This document shows positions 2,916 to 63,712 of a DNA stretch of 64,000 nucleotides, piece by piece. Every line of letters starts with the position of its first letter. Position 1 is the stretch's first letter. Source of the DNA: Burkholderiales bacterium (GTDB taxonomy: Bacteria; Pseudomonadota; Gammaproteobacteria; Burkholderiales; SG8-39); contig JAOAEA010000003.1 in the NCBI GenBank assembly GCA_026417035.1, positions 44,980 through 108,979 on the forward strand. The letters run 5' to 3'. The position numbers and the translations under genes were made by a program. The notes beneath the pieces were generated by a model. The model was not told the origin of the DNA, searched no databases, and was given only the letters and a program-made list of their open reading frames with translations.

Positions 2916-4117
2916 CCGCGGGAGGGAGCGTCCGCGGGCGGCTCGCCGCAGCGCTCCTCGCCGCCGCCGCGGCGCTCGCCGCCGCCCCGGCGGCGCCGGG
3001 GGAAAAGGAAGCGCTCGACGCGCTGCGCAAGCGGCTCGAACACCTGCGCAGCGAGATCGCGAGCGCCGAAGGCAGCCGCACCGAGGCCGCGGACCAGCTG
3101 CGCGAGTCCGAGTCGGCGATCTCCGAAGCGAACCGGGCCCTCGCGGAGATCGGCAACGCCCTCGCGGCCGCCCGGGCGGAGCTGCGGGCAGTCGAAGCCG
3201 AGGCCGCGCGGGTCGGCGGCGAAAAGGCGGTGCGCGAAGCCGAGCTCGCACGCATGCTGCACGCCCGCTACGTCGCGCACCGGCCGGGCCCCCTCGCGCT
3301 CCTACTCTCCGGCGAGGATCCCAACCGGATCGCCCGGGAGCTCGTCTACGCCGGCTATCTCTCGCGCGCCCATGCGGAGCTCGTGCGGGCCCTCGAGACC
3401 GACCGGCAGCGGCTCACGGAGCTCGCGGAGCGGGCGCGGGAGAAGGACACGGAGCTCGCCAGCCTCGAGCGGGCGCAGCGGGCGGAGCGCGAGCGCCTCG
3501 TCCGCGAGCAGGCCGCCCGCCGCGCCGTGCTCGCCCGGGTGTCCGACCAGCTTCGCAAACAGCGGCGCGAGCTCGCGACCCTCGAGCGGGACGAGAAGCG
3601 GCTGGAGCGGCTCGTCGCGAACCTCGCCCGGGCGGCGCGGCCGCCGGTGCCCGCGCCGCCCCGCGGGGAAAAGCCCTTGGCGCGGAATGACAAAGTTCCT
3701 GAGCCCGGGGCCGAGGCGGGCGTATTCTCGGCGCTCAAGGGGCGGTTGCGGCTGCCGGTCCGCGGGGAACTCTCGGGCCGTTACGGCGCTCCACGGGAGG
3801 GCGGCCTCGCGTGGAAAGGCCTTTTCCTGCGGGCGCCCGAAGGCGAAGAGGTGCGCGCGGTCGCCGCGGGACGGGTGGTGTTCGCGGACTGGCTGCGCGG
3901 CTTCGGCAACCTCCTCGTGCTCGACCACGGGCAGGGCTACCTCACGATCTACGGGCACAACCAGGCCGTGCTGAAGCGGCCGGGCGATGCGGTGCACGGC
4001 GGCGAGGTCGTGGCGACGGTCGGCGCGACCGGGGGCGCCGAGGAATCGGGCTTATACTTCGAGATTCGCGATCAGGGGCGGCCGGTCGACCCGATGGCGT
4101 GGGTGAACACAAGGTAG
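2912..4117 (+). CDS. envC: murein hydrolase activator EnvC-like (coiled coil + M23/LytM peptidase domain)
   Basis: This is the C-terminal part of the 1859..4117 ORF. It has a signal-like N-terminus ([18 protein letters not shown]), a long coiled coil and a LytM domain ([19 protein letters not shown]...GLYFEIR). I chose the TTG start at 2912, which overlaps the gpmA stop (cTTGA). The start is uncertain. Confidence 0.8.
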
Positions 4118-56417: not shown

Positions 56418-57464
56418 CTACCGCCACGGCCGGTCGTAGGCGCCCAGCGTGACCTGCGCGCCTTCGGACACCTTCGCGAGCGCCGCCGCCCACGCCGGCC
56501 GCACCGTGAACCGGGAGCCCTGCGCGAAGGCCGCGTCGATCGCCTCGCGCAGCGTGCGGGTGACCTGCGCGACATACGCCGGGCTGCGCTGGCGCCCCTC
56601 CACCTTGATCGCCGCGACGCCGGCGGCGAGGATCGCGGGCAGCAGCGCGAGCACGTTGAGGCTCGCGGGCTCCTCGAGCGCGTAGTAGGTCTCGCCCTGC
56701 ACGGCGTAGCGCCCCTTGCAGATCGTCGGGTAACCCGCGTTCTCCTCCGCGCCGAAACGGTCGATGAGGATGCCGGCGAGCCGCACGTCCATCGACTCGG
56801 GCCGCCCGGCCGCGGCGGGCACCTTCTGCCACTGCACGAACTTCGCGGGCGAGCAGGCGCCGACCGTGTTGGGCGACTCGCCGGTGGCGAAGGACGAAAG
56901 CCAGCAGCGGCCCTCGTTCATCACGCACAGGCTGCCGAAGCCGAACACCTCGATCTCGACCTCGGTGTTGGCGACGACGTGGGCGACCTCGCCGAGCGTC
57001 AGCACCCGGGGCAGGACGGCGCGACGGATGCCGAAGCGCTCGCGCGCGAAGTTGATCGCCTCGTAGCTCGTCGCCGAGCCCTGCACCGAGAGATGCAGGC
57101 GCGCATCGGGATGGGCGCGCCGCGCGTAGTCGAGCACCCCGACGTCGGCGATGATGAGGGCGTCGGCGCCGAGGGCGAGCGCCGCGTCGACCGCGCGCTG
57201 CCACTGCCCGAAGCGCCCGGCCTGCGCGTAGGTGTTGATCGCGACGAGGACCTCGCGGCCGCGCGACTGCGCGTAGCGGACACCCTCGGCGACGGCCGCG
57301 GCGTCGAAGTTGAGGCCGGCGAAGTTGCGCGCGTTGGTGGCATCGCGAAACCCGAGGTAAACCGCGTCCGCGCCGTGGTCCACCGCCGCTTTCAGCGCCG
57401 GCAGGCTGCCGGCCGGGCAGACCAGCGCGGGCTTGCGGCGCGGCGATCCGAGGGTCGCGGGCAT
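56418..57464 (-). CDS. ubiU: U32-family protein UbiU
   Basis: 348 aa with [26 protein letters not shown] and the Cys cluster ([17 protein letters not shown]...GACSP). It is paired with ubiV and ubiT. Confidence 0.82.
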
Positions 57465-57490
57465 GACAGTCCTTTGCGTGGGAAGGGGCT

Positions 57491-57532
57491 TTTATAGCCC
57501 GTCCTCCGCGGCGCGTATTTCACCCACATCAA
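57491..57532 (-). promoter_or_regulatory. candidate class II FNR/ANR-dependent promoter of ubiUVT
   Basis: The minus strand reads TTGATgtggGTGAA (57532-57519; one perfect half-site, the other 3/5), then 22 nt, then TATAAA (57496-57491). This spacing puts the box centre at about -41.5. An SD (aaagga) precedes the ATG at 57464. Confidence 0.45.
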
Positions 57533-57822
57533 TCCGGGCCCACTTGTCGCCGGCTCTCCCGGGGCCGGCCTGCGCTGACGGTTGGGTATCGGTCCAGCGC
57601 GAGGGCCGGATGGCCCGCGGCGATCCCGGGTGGGGCGGGATCCGCTGCGCGCTCCGGCGATGGCGGGATCGCGACGGTCCTCGCGAGCTTCGCGATGACG
57701 GGCGCGGTGGGCACCCGCTCCTGGATGACGCGCCCGGTCGCGCTGCCGCTGCCCGCGCGGGGCTGCCGGATGCGGCATTCGTCGCTTTGCCGTGCGGGGG
57801 CAGTCGCGTAGCATCCCCGGCC

Positions 57823-59700
57823 ATGCCCTGGCTCGAGGGAAAGCCCGTCCGCGCCGCCGCGCTCGGGGTCGCCGCGGCTGCCGCGCTCGTCATCGGCGGC
57901 ACGTCGCTGTTCCTGCCGCTCGACAACCGTCTCTCCGACGCCTTCGTCCGCGCGCACGCCGCCGGGCGTCAGGGCGATCCGGGCATCGTGATCGTCGACA
58001 TCGACGAGGCGAGCTTCGCCCGCATGCAGGACGTGGCCGGCAAGTGGCCTTGGCCGCGGTCGGTGCACGCCGAGCTCGTCGCCGGGATCGCCGAGCAGGG
58101 CCCGAAGGCGATCGTGTTCGACATCTTCTTCTCCGACCCGGACGTGTTCCGGCCCGACGCGGACCGGCTCTTCAACGAGACGCTGAAGGCGGTGCCGGGC
58201 GTTTACCTGCCGATGGCGCGGCTGCCCGCGCGCGACGACGCCAAGGGCGTGCCGATCGCGGAGGCCGCGGCGGTCCTCGGCGTGGAGGCCGGCCCCGGCG
58301 CGCGACCGGACGCGCGCGTCGCGCTCCTCGCGCCGACGGTGGTGGATCCGGCGCTCTGGCGCACCGGGGTCATCAACTTCAACGAGGACGCCGACGGCGT
58401 CGGGCGCCGCTACTACCTGTGGCTCGACGCCCATGGCTGGCGCATCCCGTCGCTCCCCGTGCGCCTCGCCCGCGACCTCGGCTACGCGGTGCCCGAGGCG
58501 CAGGAGCTCGTGCTCGACTGGCGGGGGCCGCCCGGCGCGTTCCGGCACGTGTCCTACGCCGACCTCTACGAGGACTTCGGCCGGAAGAAACGGGAGCGCC
58601 CCGCCGACGAGTTCCGCGACAAGATCGTGATCGTCGGCACCGCCGCCACGGGCCTGCAGGACCTGCGCGTGACGCCGATCGCGAGCCTGCACCCGGGGGT
58701 CGAGATCCTCGCCACCGCGATCGACAACCTGAAGAACGGCCGCGCGATGCGCGTCGCGCCGCCCGCGGTGGCCGTCGTGCTCGCGCTCGCCCTGATCGCG
58801 GCGATGCTCTTCGCCTTCGAGCGGCGCGTGAGCGCGACCCGCGTCGGGCTCGGGCTCGCCGCCGCGACGCTCGCAGTCCTCGCGGCCGCCTACGCGGCGG
58901 TCGGCGCCGGGACGATCGTCCCCGTGGTCTCGCCGCTCGCGTTCGCGTGGACGTTCTTCGTGCTCGCCGCGCTCGCCGAGTACCTGCGCGAGAAGAAAAG
59001 CCGCGAGCAGGCAGTCGGGATGTTCAGCCGCTTCCTCAACCCGCGGGTGGTGCGCGATCTCGTCGAGCAGGGGCGCACGCCCGAGTCGATGTCCGGCCAG
59101 GCGAGCGAGATCACGGTGCTCTTCTCCGACATCCGCGGCTTCACCACGCTCTCGGAGACGCACTCGCCCGAGGAGATCGTGCGGCTGCTCAACCGCTACT
59201 TCAGCCGGCAGGTCGAAGTCGTGTTCCGGCACGGCGGCACGCTCGACAAGTTCATCGGCGACGCGATCATGGCCTTCTGGGGCGCGCCGGTGCCCGACGC
59301 GCGCCACGCCGAGCACGCCGTCGCGGCCGCGCTCGAGATGCAGGCGGTGCTGGAAGACTTCAAGCGCGAGCTCGGCGCGGAAGCCGGCGACATCGCCGCG
59401 GTCTTCGACGTCGGCATCGGCATCAACACCGGCCGCGCGGTGGTCGGCTTCATCGGCGCGCGGCAGAAGCTCGACTACACCGCGATCGGCGACACCGTGA
59501 ACACCGCGAGCCGCATCGAGGGGCTCACCAAGGGCGTGGCGCGCATCCTCGTCTCGGCCGAGACCGCGCGCGCGGCAGCGGACGCCTTTGACTTCGTTCC
59601 GCGCGGCGCCTATAAAGTCAAGGGCCGCGCGCAGGAGGTCGAGCTCTTCGAGCCGAGGCCGAAGGGAGCACCGCCTTCATCCGCAGGAGAGCCCGCATGA
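57823..59700 (+). CDS. CHASE2 sensor domain-containing class III adenylate/guanylate cyclase
   Basis: Start reassigned to the ATG at 57823. It has an N-terminal TM helix and a CHASE2 domain (IVIVDIDEASF...WPWPRSVHAELV). These are followed by three TM helices and a cyclase domain (ITVLFSDIRGFTTLSE...KFIGDAIMAFWGAP...GDTVNTASRIE). Confidence 0.9.
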   Translation: MPWLEGKPVRAAALGVAAAAALVIGGTSLFLPLDNRLSDAFVRAHAAGRQGDPGIVIVDIDEASFARMQDVAGKWPWPRSVHAELVAGIAEQGPKAIVFDIFFSDPDVFRPDADRLFNETLKAVPGVYLPMARLPARDDAKGVPIAEAAAVLGVEAGPGARPDARVALLAPTVVDPALWRTGVINFNEDADGVGRRYYLWLDAHGWRIPSLPVRLARDLGYAVPEAQELVLDWRGPPGAFRHVSYADLYEDFGRKKRERPADEFRDKIVIVGTAATGLQDLRVTPIASLHPGVEILATAIDNLKNGRAMRVAPPAVAVVLALALIAAMLFAFERRVSATRVGLGLAAATLAVLAAAYAAVGAGTIVPVVSPLAFAWTFFVLAALAEYLREKKSREQAVGMFSRFLNPRVVRDLVEQGRTPESMSGQASEITVLFSDIRGFTTLSETHSPEEIVRLLNRYFSRQVEVVFRHGGTLDKFIGDAIMAFWGAPVPDARHAEHAVAAALEMQAVLEDFKRELGAEAGDIAAVFDVGIGINTGRAVVGFIGARQKLDYTAIGDTVNTASRIEGLTKGVARILVSAETARAAADAFDFVPRGAYKVKGRAQEVELFEPRPKGAPPSSAGEPA

Positions 59701-60254: not shown

Positions 60255-61117
60255 TGACGCCGCGGCAGATCCTCGGCCTCATGGCGGCCGCGGCGCTCGC
60301 CGCCGTGGCGGCGGGCGCGAACGCGCAGTTCCGCATTCCCGGCATCGACGTCAACCGCGCGCTCGACACGGTGAAGAACGTCGTCACCGTCGTGAACGAG
60401 CCGGACGAGAAGCAGGAGCGCGAGATCGGCGCCGAGTGGGCCGCGATCCTCGTCGGCGCCGCGCCGCTCTGGGCGAACCCCGGCGCACAGCGCTACGTGA
60501 ACGTGGTCGGCCGCTGGGTCGCGCTGCACAGCGAGCGGCCCGACCTCGACTGGCAGTTCGGCATCCTCGACAGCGACAACGTGAACGCGTTCGCGACGCC
60601 CGGCGGCTACATCTTCGTGACGAAGGGCCTCGTCGTGCGCATGCGCAGCGAGGCCGAGCTCGCCGGCGTCCTCGGCCACGAGATCGCGCACGTGGTGAGG
60701 AAGCACCACCTGAAGGCGATGCAGACCGGCGCGCTCGCGAACATCGGCGGCAACGTGCTCACCGAGGTCGTCGGCCGGCGCAGCGGCGTGCCCGCGGAGC
60801 TGCGCAGCCAGCTCGTCAACGCCGGCAAGCAGATGTTCATGCGCGGCCTCGACAAGGACGACGAATACGAGGCCGACCGCATGGGCGTGGTGCTCGCCGC
60901 GCGCGCCGGCTACGACCCCTACGGCCTGCCGGCGGTGCTGCAGACGATCGCTGCGATGGGCGCCCAGAGCTCCGAGCTCGCGCTGCTCTTCGAGACCCAC
61001 CCCCCGCCCGGCGCGCGCCTCGACGCGCTCGAGCGCGTGATGTCGCCGCCGCTCGATCGCTACGCCACGCAGCCGCAGGTCGCCGAGCGCTTCGTCCGCT
61101 CCATCTCCGGCCAGTGA
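60254..61117 (+). CDS. M48 family zinc metallopeptidase, periplasmic
   Basis: Start reassigned to the ATG at 60254, which overlaps the upstream stop (TGATG). It has a signal peptide, HEIAHVVRKH (HExxH) and a downstream EYEADRMG. Confidence 0.88.
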   Translation: MTPRQILGLMAAAALAAVAAGANAQFRIPGIDVNRALDTVKNVVTVVNEPDEKQEREIGAEWAAILVGAAPLWANPGAQRYVNVVGRWVALHSERPDLDWQFGILDSDNVNAFATPGGYIFVTKGLVVRMRSEAELAGVLGHEIAHVVRKHHLKAMQTGALANIGGNVLTEVVGRRSGVPAELRSQLVNAGKQMFMRGLDKDDEYEADRMGVVLAARAGYDPYGLPAVLQTIAAMGAQSSELALLFETHPPPGARLDALERVMSPPLDRYATQPQVAERFVRSISGQ

Positions 61118-61170
61118 CCGGCCGGCGCCGCGGGCCGGTCGTCGCGACCACGCGACACGAAGCCGTCGGC

Positions 61171-61201
61171 GCGCGGGCCGCGGCGGTGCCGCGGCCCGCG
61201 C
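61171..61201. terminator. 13-bp GC hairpin between the convergent M48 and aminotransferase genes
   Basis: gcgcgggccgcgg-cggtg-ccgcggcccgcgc. Only a short T-run (ttt) follows on the plus strand. Confidence 0.5.
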
Positions 61202-61207
61202 GCGCTT

Positions 61208-62728
61208 TCAGGCGGCGACCTTCACCTTCTCCTTCTTCTTCTGCTGCGCGGCCTTCTGGTGCATCTGTGCGTAGGCGCTGTGCGCCGCGGCCTCGGCGTC
61301 GCCGACGTGCAGCGGATAGCCCATGTCCGAGAGGACCGAGCCGAGCGCCGAGAGGCAGAGCATCACGTTGTCCGGCCGGCACGAATAGCCCATGATGCCG
61401 AAGCGCCAGATCTTCCCGGCGAGCGGGCCGAGGCCCGCGCCGATCTCGAGGCTGAACTCCGAGAGGAGCCGCTTGCGCACCTCCGCCTCGTTCACGCCCT
61501 CGGGCACCAGCACCGCATTCATCTGCGGGATCTGCCAGGGCTCCTTCACCAGGAACTTGAGCCCCATGGCCTCGAGCCCGGCCTTGAGCGCGATGTGGTG
61601 GCGCGTGTGGCGCGCCCAGCTGTTCTCGAGGCCCTCTTCCTTGATGAGGAGCAGCGCCTCGTGCAGGCCGAGCAGCGAGTTGGTCGGCGCCGTGTGGTGG
61701 TAGGTGCGCGTGGTGGCGCCCCAGTAGCCGAGGAGCAGGTTCATGTCCATGAACCAGCTGTGGATCTTGTCCTTGCGGCCCTTGACGAACTCGACGACGC
61801 GGTCGCTGAACGACACCGGCGAGAGGCCGGGCGTGCAGGACAGGCACTTCTGGCTCGCCGAGTAGATGGCGTCGACCTTCCACTCGTCCACGAGCACCGG
61901 GCAGCCGCCGAGCGAAGTGACCGCGTCGACGATGGTCATCGCGTCGTACTTGTGCGCCACTTCGACCAGCGTCTTCGCGTCCGAGAGGGCGCCGGTGGAG
62001 GTCTCGGCGTGGACGAAGGCGAGGATGCGCGCGTCGCGGTTCGCCTTCAGGGCGTCCTCGACCTTCTGCGGGTCGACCGGCTCGCCCCACTCGTGCTCGA
62101 CCACGACCGGGATGCCGCCGCAGCGCTCGACGTTCTCGATCATGCGGCCGCCGAAGACGCCGTTGCGCGCCACGACCACCTTGTCGCCGGGCCGCACCAT
62201 GTTCACGAAGCAGTACTCCATGCCCACCGAGCCGGGGCCGGAGACCGGGAAGGTGAGCGCGTTCTTCGTCTGGAAGACGTAGCGCAGCAGCGCCTTCAGC
62301 TCCTCCATCATCTCGACGAACACCGGGTCGAGGTAGCCGATCGCGGGCTGGCTCATCGTGGTGAGCACGCGCGGGTGGATCTCCGTCGGACCCGGGCCCA
62401 TCAGCGTGCGCTGCGGCGGATGGAAGGACTGGATGCGCTTCGCGGGGGCGTACGGGTTCATGGCGTCATTCCCTTCGAGTGGGGATCCGAACAGCACTGC
62501 GTCGTCGCCGCGCGACTTCACCCGGATGGGCCTGGCGGCGTAGGCTTCGTTGAGGACTTCGGTCGCGAGGATCTGGCCGCCGCTGACGCCCTCGACCTCG
62601 ACGGCCCAGCGCGACGGGATGTAGCCCGACTTCACCCAGTTGTTCACGACGGCGCGGTCGATCTTCATGCGGCGCGCCGCCTCGGCCTGCGAGCCGAAGA
62701 GGGCGACGAGTCTTTCCGCGCAGTTCAA
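61208..62728 (-). CDS. class-V aminotransferase (alanine/serine-glyoxylate aminotransferase-like) with an in-frame N-terminal Cro/YdaS-like HTH segment
   Basis: 506-aa ORF with a TTG start at 62728, preceded by an SD (ggagga, 7-nt spacing). Residues 1-60 (LVALFGSQAEAARRMKIDRAVVNNWVKSGYIPSRWAVEVEGVSGGQI) look like a Cro/YdaS HTH. The aminotransferase part starts at the internal ATG at 62461 (MNPYAPAK...), which has its own SD (gaaggga). It carries GPGPTEI and the PLP lysine motif SASQKCL. Confidence 0.85.
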   Translation of the reverse strand: MNCAERLVALFGSQAEAARRMKIDRAVVNNWVKSGYIPSRWAVEVEGVSGGQILATEVLNEAYAARPIRVKSRGDDAVLFGSPLEGNDAMNPYAPAKRIQSFHPPQRTLMGPGPTEIHPRVLTTMSQPAIGYLDPVFVEMMEELKALLRYVFQTKNALTFPVSGPGSVGMEYCFVNMVRPGDKVVVARNGVFGGRMIENVERCGGIPVVVEHEWGEPVDPQKVEDALKANRDARILAFVHAETSTGALSDAKTLVEVAHKYDAMTIVDAVTSLGGCPVLVDEWKVDAIYSASQKCLSCTPGLSPVSFSDRVVEFVKGRKDKIHSWFMDMNLLLGYWGATTRTYHHTAPTNSLLGLHEALLLIKEEGLENSWARHTRHHIALKAGLEAMGLKFLVKEPWQIPQMNAVLVPEGVNEAEVRKRLLSEFSLEIGAGLGPLAGKIWRFGIMGYSCRPDNVMLCLSALGSVLSDMGYPLHVGDAEAAAHSAYAQMHQKAAQQKKKEKVKVAA

Positions 62729-62753
62729 GGGCCGATCCTCCAGCGAGGCCGGC

Positions 62754-62783
62754 AGGATAGCATCGTCAAGCTTAGCTTGACAA
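62754..62783 (-). promoter_or_regulatory. promoter with a palindromic operator upstream of the HTH-aminotransferase ORF
   Basis: The minus strand reads TTGTCA (62783-62778), N18, TATCCT (62759-62754). A perfect inverted repeat, GTCAAGCT-T-AGCTTGAC (62765-62781), spans the -35 and spacer. Confidence 0.55.
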
Positions 62784-62803
62784 TGTCTGTTTGATGATTC
62801 GGA

Positions 62804-63712
62804 TCAGCCTCGCGTGACCGGGGTCGGCAGGCGCGCGGTGCCCGGACCGGGATCGGGAAACTCTTCCGAATCAAAGGCCTTGTCGCCATCCTCGCCCGGG
62901 ATCCCGGTCGCCGCCACCGCCGCGAAATCGAAGAGCGTCCGGTCGAGGAGGTGCGAGGGGGTCACGCGACCGAGGCTCGCGAAGATCGTCTCGACGCGCC
63001 CGGGGAAGCGCTTTTCCCATTCGCGCAGGAGCGCCTTCACCTGCTTGCGCTGCAGGTTCTCCTGCGAGCCGCACAGGTCGCACGGGATGATCGGGAAAGC
63101 GCGCACCTCGGCATAGCGCGCGAGATCGGCTTCCTTCACGTAGGCGAGCGGCCGGATGACGACGTGCCGGCCATCGTCCGAGACGAGCTTCGGCGGCATC
63201 GCCTTCAGCTTCCCGCCGAAGAAGAGGTTGAGGAAAAAGGTCTCCAGGATGTCGTCGCGGTGGTGGCCGAGCGCGATCTTCGTCGCGCCGAGCTCGCCGG
63301 CGACGCGGTAGAGGATGCCGCGCCGCAGCCGCGAGCAGAGCGAGCACATCGTCTTCCCCTGCGGGATCACGCGCTTCACCACCGAGTGCGTGTCCTCGAC
63401 CTCGATGCGGAACGGGATGCCGAGCTTCCCGAGATAATCCGGAAGGACGTGCGCGGGGAAGCCGGGGTGTCGCTGATCGAGGTTGACCGCGACGATCTCG
63501 AAGTCGAGCGGCGCCGCCTCGCGCAGCTTCATGAGGAGGTCGAGCAGCGCGAAGCTGTCCTTGCCGCCGGAGAGGCACACCATCACCCGGTCGCCGGCGC
63601 GGATCATGTCGAAGTCGGCGATCGCCTGGCCGGCCTGGCGGCGCAGGCGCTTCTCGAGCTTGTTCGCCTCGTAGGCGGCCTTGCGCACGTCGCGGGCGGT
63701 GGGGGCGTTCAT
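62804..63712 (-). CDS. ttcA: tRNA 2-thiocytidine(32) synthetase TtcA
   Basis: 302 aa with the PP-loop SGGKDS, plus [10 protein letters not shown] and PCDLCGSQ (Fe-S cluster Cys residues). Confidence 0.94.

Follow-up and report, generated by a model that had tools for sequence, protein, structure and literature searches.

All-α Cro proteins of phages, represented by those of the Xylella prophage Xfaso 1 (PDB 3BD1), N15 (2HIN/6ON0) and P22 (1RZS), share a five-helix helix-turn-helix (HTH) fold with the Escherichia coli prophage protein YdaS (8C7K), and the site of a Cro protein is a dyad of about 17–19 bp placed over a promoter. In MocR, GabR and PdxR, a long and flexible linker separates the N-terminal HTH from a fold-type I domain that dimerises and binds pyridoxal phosphate (PLP). 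A third group is formed by PutA (ribbon-helix-helix with proline dehydrogenase and pyrroline-5-carboxylate (P5C) dehydrogenase), BirA (winged HTH with biotin ligase), NadR and the archaeal RbkR (PMC5397151), in which an active enzyme carrying an N-terminal DNA-binding domain represses its own gene or operon by way of a promoter operator. Here we describe a gene in which a Cro/YdaS-type HTH domain is fused in frame to a class-V aminotransferase of the AGXT family. It lies on the minus strand of a 64-kb stretch of a Burkholderiales contig (JAOAEA010000003.1), hereafter called the window, and all coordinates are positions in that window unless another locus is named.

The locus has the five-helix fold and the dyad over a promoter in common with the phage Cro systems. 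However, its HTH domain forms one polypeptide with a metabolic enzyme of 417 aa and stands in a stable chromosomal, non-prophage context; the candidate operator is a single dyad and not tripartite, and a gene for a partner repressor is missing. With the MocR and GabR proteins it shares its overall build, an HTH at the front and a fold-type I PLP domain behind a long linker; as there, regulation would be tied to a PLP protein. In contrast to them, the HTH is Cro/Xre-like and not of the winged GntR type, and the PLP domain belongs to class V (AGXT, PF00266) and not to class I/II. The enzyme also appears fully catalytic from its sequence, an internal start is conserved, and the gene is probably leaderless. 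The likeness to PutA, BirA, NadR and RbkR is used here as a working model, by analogy, and both the DNA-binding fold and the enzyme class differ. To our knowledge, none of these four has been described to make a second, HTH-less isoform from one mRNA, as is predicted here. Finally, the AGXT enzymes 1VJO, Bacillus subtilis PucG, Klebsiella ureidoglycine-glyoxylate aminotransferase (UGXT), human AGT and a Sinorhizobium meliloti pSym protein annotated as 'alanine--glyoxylate aminotransferase family protein' are about 50% identical to the enzyme part and have its PLP lysine and aspartate, but all of them are unfused and their starts align to fusion residues 96–99.

The open reading frame (ORF) runs for 506 codons without interruption, as the original prediction had stated, and both the N-terminal Cro/YdaS-like HTH and the class-V aminotransferase proposed there are found in it. 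Its parts are arranged as follows.

61208..62728, minus strand: Cro-HTH/class-V aminotransferase fusion ORF, 506 aa, TTG start, TGA stop.
62534..62728, minus strand: Cro/YdaS-type all-α HTH, residues 1–65, identified through PF15943, PDB 3BD1, an AlphaFold (AF2) model, Foldseek and a ratio of nonsynonymous to synonymous substitutions (dN/dS) of 0.14.
62501..62533, minus strand: conserved basic tail behind the HTH, residues 66–76, RPIRVKSRGDD, delimited by conservation over 80 orthologues.
62462..62500, minus strand: variable linker, residues 77–89, predicted to be disordered (predicted local distance difference test, pLDDT, ~30) and containing an internal Shine-Dalgarno (SD) motif, GAAGGGA.
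62459..62461, minus strand: internal ATG (Met90), at which a 417-aa isoform without the HTH may start.
61259..62434, minus strand: AGXT-family class-V (fold-type I) aminotransferase domain, residues 99–490, identified through Aminotran_5 and PDB 1VJO.
61849–61847, minus strand: PLP lysine K294, within S292-Q293-K294.
61211..61246, minus strand: Lys-rich C-terminal tail QQKKKEKVKVAA, read from the sequence.

The orthologue set consists of the best 80 loci out of at least 589 stretches that encode a relative in a one-genome-per-species collection, and all 80 are metagenome-assembled genomes of uncultured Burkholderiales/Betaproteobacteria. The HTH is fused in every one of them, a single in-frame tblastn segment starting at residue 1 in 80 of the 80 loci. 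Likewise, proteins of ~500–517 aa with PF15943 and PF00266 make up 119 of the 120 best clusters at 90% identity, the odd one lying on a 1.7-kb contig. An ATG ('MNCAERLV...') stands at the position of the window's TTG in 76 of the 80 orthologues. The dN/dS ratio, computed by the Nei-Gojobori method over 400 random pairs, is 0.14 for the HTH (codons 2–62), 0.21 for the linker, 0.12 for the enzyme domain and 0.33 for the C-terminal tail. Because the value of 0.14 is reached at a dS of ~1.05, where synonymous sites are saturated, the N-terminus must be translated and constrained as a protein. An N-terminal region unconserved or untranslated in relatives, which would have spoken against the original prediction, was thus not borne out. 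We are close to certain that the fusion protein is real and functional and, judging from these comparisons, the fusion is ancient, fixed and kept by selection. A recent loss of a stop codon or an assembly error is ruled out by the 80 in-frame loci and by the purifying selection on the HTH.

It is also highly improbable that Met90 alone serves as a start, with codons 1–89 untranslated or only incidentally open. Most orthologues do have no SD motif before codon 1, and the one before Met90 is conserved, which is what such a gene would look like. But the frame is open in 80 of 80 independent assemblies, the low dN/dS of codons 2–62 is found at saturated synonymous sites, and the ATG at codon 1 is kept, with a promoter placed for transcription from that ATG.

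By profile and by predicted fold, the N-terminal domain is a member of the Cro/YdaS family. Residues 1–90 alone score 32.0 bits against PF15943 (YdaS_toxin; cutoff 30), and the Pfam comparison that had been suggested for residues 1–70 thus speaks for an HTH; in the context of the full-length protein the score is 28.1 bits, just under the same cutoff. The P22_Cro profile (PF14549) does not reach its cutoff (22.8 versus 30.2 bits), and generic HTH profiles also match more weakly. The cutoff of NF046037, the 'carph-isopro domain', is missed as well (33.4 versus 38 bits; residues 4–50, 62579–62719), and the free-standing relatives stay below that threshold too. In a sequence search, Cro of the Xylella prophage Xfaso 1 (3BD1) aligns with residues 1–68 (E=1.5e-4). 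The AF2 model of residues 1–80, built on an alignment with 75 mostly free-standing relatives, has a pLDDT of 88.8 and contains five helices (residues 3–11, 14–21, 25–34, 39–49 and 55–65). When this model is compared with the PDB by Foldseek, ranks 1–9 are taken by Cro of Xfaso 1, N15 (including a DNA complex) and P22 and by the Cro-derived hybrid XPH1, with target-normalised TM-scores of 0.63–0.87 and root-mean-square deviations of 1.1–1.8 Å; YdaS comes at rank 11. Over the 80 orthologues, the recognition-helix segment R25–W31 is nearly invariant, with slight variation at N29 and N30, and the basic tail that follows the HTH (consensus KPVRVKSRPD) is strongly conserved. Several free-standing HTH relatives also end in a KPxRxK-like basic tail, and one may speculate that the KPVRVKSR stretch acts as a DNA-contacting arm. 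No second gene with this HTH domain was found in the window or in the 82 loci searched.

A single cluster with the complete fusion (P0131, 81% identity overall), and fragments of it, came out of an exhaustive HMMER search with residues 1–72 against 1.84 billion representatives; the remaining matches are free-standing proteins of 60–100 aa. The closest of these (P0167, 81 aa, 52% identity) is encoded at positions 2556–2801 of locus L083, and also in L084–L086. It heads an operon of the phage early-right type, made of a cro-like gene, small ORFs, a DnaB_C helicase and RusA, and so occupies the position of cro. Sequence and modelled fold thus indicate that the fused HTH domain is of phage origin, with phage cro genes as its nearest free relatives. 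The same search also retrieved five long proteins, P0147 (661 aa), P0166 (1133 aa), P0190, P0211 and P0212, in which 3–9 separate stretches match the 72-aa query; they give many weak unrelated NCBIfam matches in addition and probably consist of repeats, low-complexity sequence or HTH domains in tandem.

On the enzyme side, unfused homologues such as the annotated S. meliloti pSym gene begin to align at residues 96–99 and reach only ~51% identity, and the best matches listed are all fused, with neither a close unfused orthologue nor a separate pair of cro and aminotransferase genes among them. The simplest history is that a cro-like gene upstream of an aminotransferase gene lost its stop codon and was read through the intergenic spacer. 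Linker residues ~77–89 would then probably be the former spacer, and Met90 the ancestral start of the enzyme. The lost stop codon, raised in the original prediction as an alternative to a functional fusion, is therefore right as an evolutionary history, given the spacer-like linker and the unfused starts at 96–99, and wrong as a recent accident or assembly error.

The enzyme domain reaches 75.6 bits against Aminotran_5 (PF00266; cutoff 21.5) and matches PDB 1VJO (Nostoc alr1004) with E=1.5e-102; PucG, UGXT and human AGT match as well, and over residues 99–476 the identity to solved AGXT-family enzymes is ~50%. S292-Q293-K294, which holds the Schiff-base lysine K294, and D268, the aspartate in contact with the pyridine nitrogen, align to 1VJO and are invariant in the family. 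From its residues the aminotransferase appears catalytically intact. Our best guess for its substrate class is an Ala/Ser:glyoxylate-type aminotransferase, an assignment made because of its relatives, as no equivalog cutoff is reached. Among the NCBIfam equivalogs, the scores are 220.6 versus a cutoff of 650 for BhcA (L-aspartate:glyoxylate aminotransferase), 178 versus 361 for PhnW and 186 versus 600 for pyridoxamine-pyruvate transaminase. The basic C-terminal tail that had been pointed out is present and partly conserved (consensus AQAKKK). In public databases the family is annotated solely as 'aminotransferase class V-fold PLP-dependent enzyme'.

An HTH joined by a long linker to a fold-type I domain recalls GabR, PdxR and EnuR, and by analogy with these precedents the aminotransferase domain could serve mainly in effector binding and dimerisation, through the state of PLP or substrate, with catalysis secondary or lost. 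We find this improbable. Lys294 and Asp268 do not vary, nor does almost any part of the active-site region; across species the domain as a whole is 78–95% identical, and it evolves under a dN/dS of 0.12. Moreover, the conserved internal start would yield the enzyme alone, there is no linked second aminotransferase or target operon, and the downstream neighbours vary. The fusion is not a MocR protein, because a GntR HTH is missing (no match to PF00392), the PLP domain is of class V (PF00155 reaches 19.3 bits, just below its cutoff of 19.7, and is secondary to PF00266) and the catalytic residues are intact.

Upstream of the ORF, three elements are of interest.

62736..62741, minus strand: SD motif GGAGGA, 7 nt ahead of the TTG (62728–62726).
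62754..62783, minus strand: sigma-70-type promoter with a -35 TTGTCA (62783–62778), an 18-nt spacer, TG (62762–62761) and a -10 TATCCT (62759–62754).
62764..62782, no strand assigned: 19-bp dyad TGTCAAGCTAAGCTTGACG, candidate operator, which overlaps both -35 and spacer.

The TTGTCA-N18-TATCCT promoter and the palindrome overlapping it had both been predicted, and both are conserved in the 80 orthologous loci. The promoter is the sole promoter-like site within 2 kb, where 0.1 is expected from shuffles. The palindrome GTCAAGCT-T-AGCTTGAC (62765–62781) is indeed a perfect 8-1-8 repeat, with no other match in the window at up to 3 mismatches (0.19 expected by chance). However, it has to be corrected to one instance of a family-wide 19-bp dyad, TGTCAAA-N5-TTTG(A/T)CA (TTGTCAAA-N5-TTTG(A/T)CA), which is followed by TGnTAnnnT. 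The 19-mer is kept in a fixed register, with the outer 6+6 bases (positions 1–6 and 14–19) nearly invariant and the central seven variable. All 81 loci carry it, in upstream DNA that otherwise cannot be aligned, and it remains with the gene when a different neighbour lies upstream. The layout comprises a -35 TTGTCA, a spacer that measures 17 nt in 69 of 78 orthologues, and an extended -10; the dyad thus takes in the -35 together with the larger part of the spacer. We built a position-weight matrix from the dyad sites and scanned the window and 82 loci, 777 kb in total, on both strands; all 175 matches are located at the fusion-gene promoter, and none elsewhere. A dimeric repressor of the Cro type that controls its own promoter would be expected to have such a dyad within it, and the HTH probably binds this site. 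Near-invariance is shared by the recognition helix (R25–W31) and the outer half-sites.

Variation of the upstream region was observed in a subclade made of L007 (~3930–3975), L029, L035, L036, L041, L052, L055 and L072, in which the right half-site is the variant TTGATA. In this L007-type subclade the -10 is weaker (CAGACT or CAATCT) and the leaders, of 26–54 nt, are without SD. In L007 itself a second dyad, TGGCAAGCTCAGCTTGTCA, overlaps the first with a half-site common to both, an arrangement that could be a two-site operator.

Other assignments of the dyad were rejected. As a plus-strand terminator, for which it was flagged in a scan, it would have no plus-strand gene upstream, and its stem is A/T-rich and weak in most orthologues. 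An RNA element in the leader was looked for with Rfam, which gave no match in 60900–63100 at E up to 1. Dyads in viral contigs were examined as a link to phage cro, and more than 120 such loci have no family member near any of them, so that these copies are due to chance or unrelated. Three exact TTGTCAAA-N5-TTTGACAA copies in L089 (8233–8946) and in L090 (6120–6833) lie within one 521-aa ORF that consists of repeated zinc-ribbon-like units (CQTCFDKSFASHEKSKYW), and a link to an operator was discarded. Upstream of the cro gene of L083, TTGACA and TGTCA elements are present, with no convincing copy of the 19-bp dyad.

The distance between promoter and start codon is short in most of the family. 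In 45 of 78 orthologues the -10 is followed by the ATG after only 5–10 nt (mode 7), most of them pyrimidines, which should place the transcription start on the A of the ATG or directly beside it. Most orthologues therefore appear leaderless, a design known from lambda cI. Longer leaders occur in 33 loci, the window included, and an SD-like motif precedes the start in just four of them. The window belongs to these four, with the TTG start and the ggagga at 7-nt spacing that had been read from its sequence. Leaderless translation requires a 5' AUG, and the strong SD combined with a non-ATG start in the window fits this rule. The closest relatives of the window (L001–L003, 87–89% identical) are of the leaderless type and start with ATG. 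The SD-led TTG of the window hence looks like a derived switch from leaderless initiation. Relative to L001–L003, the segment 62729–62753 has ~19 extra nt with GGAGGA, the start is TTG, and the promoter spacer is 18 nt instead of 17 nt.

The second start was correctly located in the original prediction, at the ATG 62461–62459 (codon 90) with its own SD GAAGGGA (62476–62470) 8 nt upstream, except that the short product comprises 417 and not 416 residues. Orthologues lend independent support to the idea of two products. Met90 is encoded by ATG in 76 of the 80, and the Gly86 codon, 12 nt before it, is GGG or GGA in 76 of the 80, compared with 21.7% GGR among glycine codons gene-wide. In addition, the codon after Gly86 starts with A in 74 of the 80, which gives GGGAG, GGGAA or GGAAA at optimal spacing. 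The mean energy of the SD:anti-SD duplex is -5.9 kcal/mol at Met90, versus -2.3 for other internal ATGs. From the conserved Met90 and the SD-forming Gly86 codon, the 417-aa HTH-less enzyme is probably co-produced with the 506-aa form, and we lean towards both isoforms being made.

Overall, these features can be assembled into a model, to which we give a probability of roughly 0.55 as a whole on the basis of sequence comparisons. A complete phage-type Cro, consisting of the five-helix HTH and its basic tail, was joined in frame to the downstream aminotransferase gene. The enzyme domain would form a homodimer, as in its solved relatives, and thereby carry two Cro domains on flexible linkers of ~35 residues. 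This pair would occupy the 19-bp dyad over the -35 and spacer of its own promoter and exclude RNA polymerase. The result would be negative autoregulation by a 'trigger enzyme', as in PutA or BirA. A single mRNA would give the 506-aa HTH-enzyme from codon 1, by leaderless initiation in most relatives and from the SD-led TTG in the window, and the 417-aa HTH-less enzyme from the internal SD and Met90. Mixed dimers of the long and short forms would carry one HTH, so that repression could be a non-linear function of how much long form is present. We infer DNA binding by the HTH, the direction of regulation, the use of both start codons, any control by ligand or PLP state and the substrate of the enzyme; the non-linearity through mixed dimers and any modulation by PLP or substrate are speculative.

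Several observations weigh against this model. The full-length AF2 model is poor (pLDDT 61) and carries no information on domain docking. L078, an orthologue of the leaderless type, has a GTG start. The SD-like energy ahead of Met196 and Met388 nearly equals that of Met90, and because these two score nearly as well, the synonymous-codon bias at Gly86 is the stronger argument for an internal start. The scanned 777 kb lie mostly within 4 kb of the gene, so that regulon sites elsewhere in the genomes are possible. Co-variation between the HTH and the operator is not clear-cut: in a mutual-information comparison of operator bases with protein columns, HTH columns account for 25 of the top scorers, against ~17 expected, at most a weak enrichment. 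The inner dyad pairs 7/13, 8/12 and 9/11 are complementary slightly above shuffles, a difference that is not significant and is confounded by phylogeny. Finally, the right half-site TTGACA is the -35 consensus, and part of the conservation of the dyad could therefore reflect promoter function.

The last of these points lead to another account of the dyad, which grants that the fusion is real and assigns the dyad to another factor or to features recognised by RNA polymerase. The Cro domain would then serve a regulon, protein-protein contacts or tethering to the nucleoid. The absence of detected co-variation between HTH and operator, the resemblance of the half-sites to -35 hexamers and a dyad scan confined to the gene neighbourhood are all compatible with it. 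We nevertheless judge it unlikely. In all 81 loci the dyad accompanies the gene that encodes the HTH, and no further copy was seen in the 777 kb; conservation in the spacer region at dS >1 is not expected for a plain promoter; and a Cro-type dimer site over the protein's own promoter is canonical for the fold.

The autorepressing trigger-enzyme model can be extended into a circuit that measures its own product. In this extension, a minor HTH-tagged and a major HTH-less isoform would be made, only long-long dimers would fit the dyad, and repression would read the total amount of enzyme, and possibly its PLP or substrate state, in a non-linear manner. We put this forward tentatively and consider it doubtful at present.

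The fusion locus is chromosomal and lies in a stable housekeeping context, not in a prophage. The upstream neighbour in the window is a PP-loop ATPase gene (62804–63712, minus strand), with PF01171 as its sole match, which we take to encode TtcA. In 60 of the 80 loci ttcA stands upstream on the same strand, and the genes downstream vary. On the other side of the fusion gene, one further feature was recorded.

61169..61203, no strand assigned: perfect 16-bp GC hairpin, 4 nt past the stop codon.

This GC-only hairpin, with a 3-nt loop, lies between the fusion gene and a convergent M48 peptidase gene (60269–61117, plus strand); it may be a bidirectional terminator, although it has no T-tract. A gene for a CHASE2-domain adenylate/guanylate cyclase is found nearby (57433–59700, plus strand). 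In L081 (9529–10582), two genes of the RidA family (Ribonuc_L-PSP) stand behind the fusion gene, an arrangement that is not conserved in the window or in L082. RidA-family proteins are enamine/imine deaminases that often occur alongside PLP enzymes.

A literature search found no description of a Cro-aminotransferase architecture. The family is an uncharacterised one, its sequences are already public, and its concept stays within known principles. As far as sampled, it is restricted to uncultured lineages of soil, water and groundwater bacteria, so that its regulatory half has been overlooked. If the autorepressing model is true, the family would be a clear example from nature of a housekeeping enzyme that has recruited a domain of the phage repressor family, and would bring a new combination of fold and enzyme to the few trigger enzymes such as PutA, BirA, NadR and the MocR-like proteins. 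It would also provide an explicit circuit, with a single 19-bp operator in a near-consensus promoter, a leaderless regulator form and an internal ribosome-binding site. More modestly, the finding would improve annotation, supply a compact autoregulated module of promoter, operator and HTH, and give a clue to how glyoxylate and amino-acid metabolism is buffered. Should the more tentative self-measuring circuit also hold, it would represent a new design principle of enzyme homeostasis across hundreds of uncultured Betaproteobacterial species.

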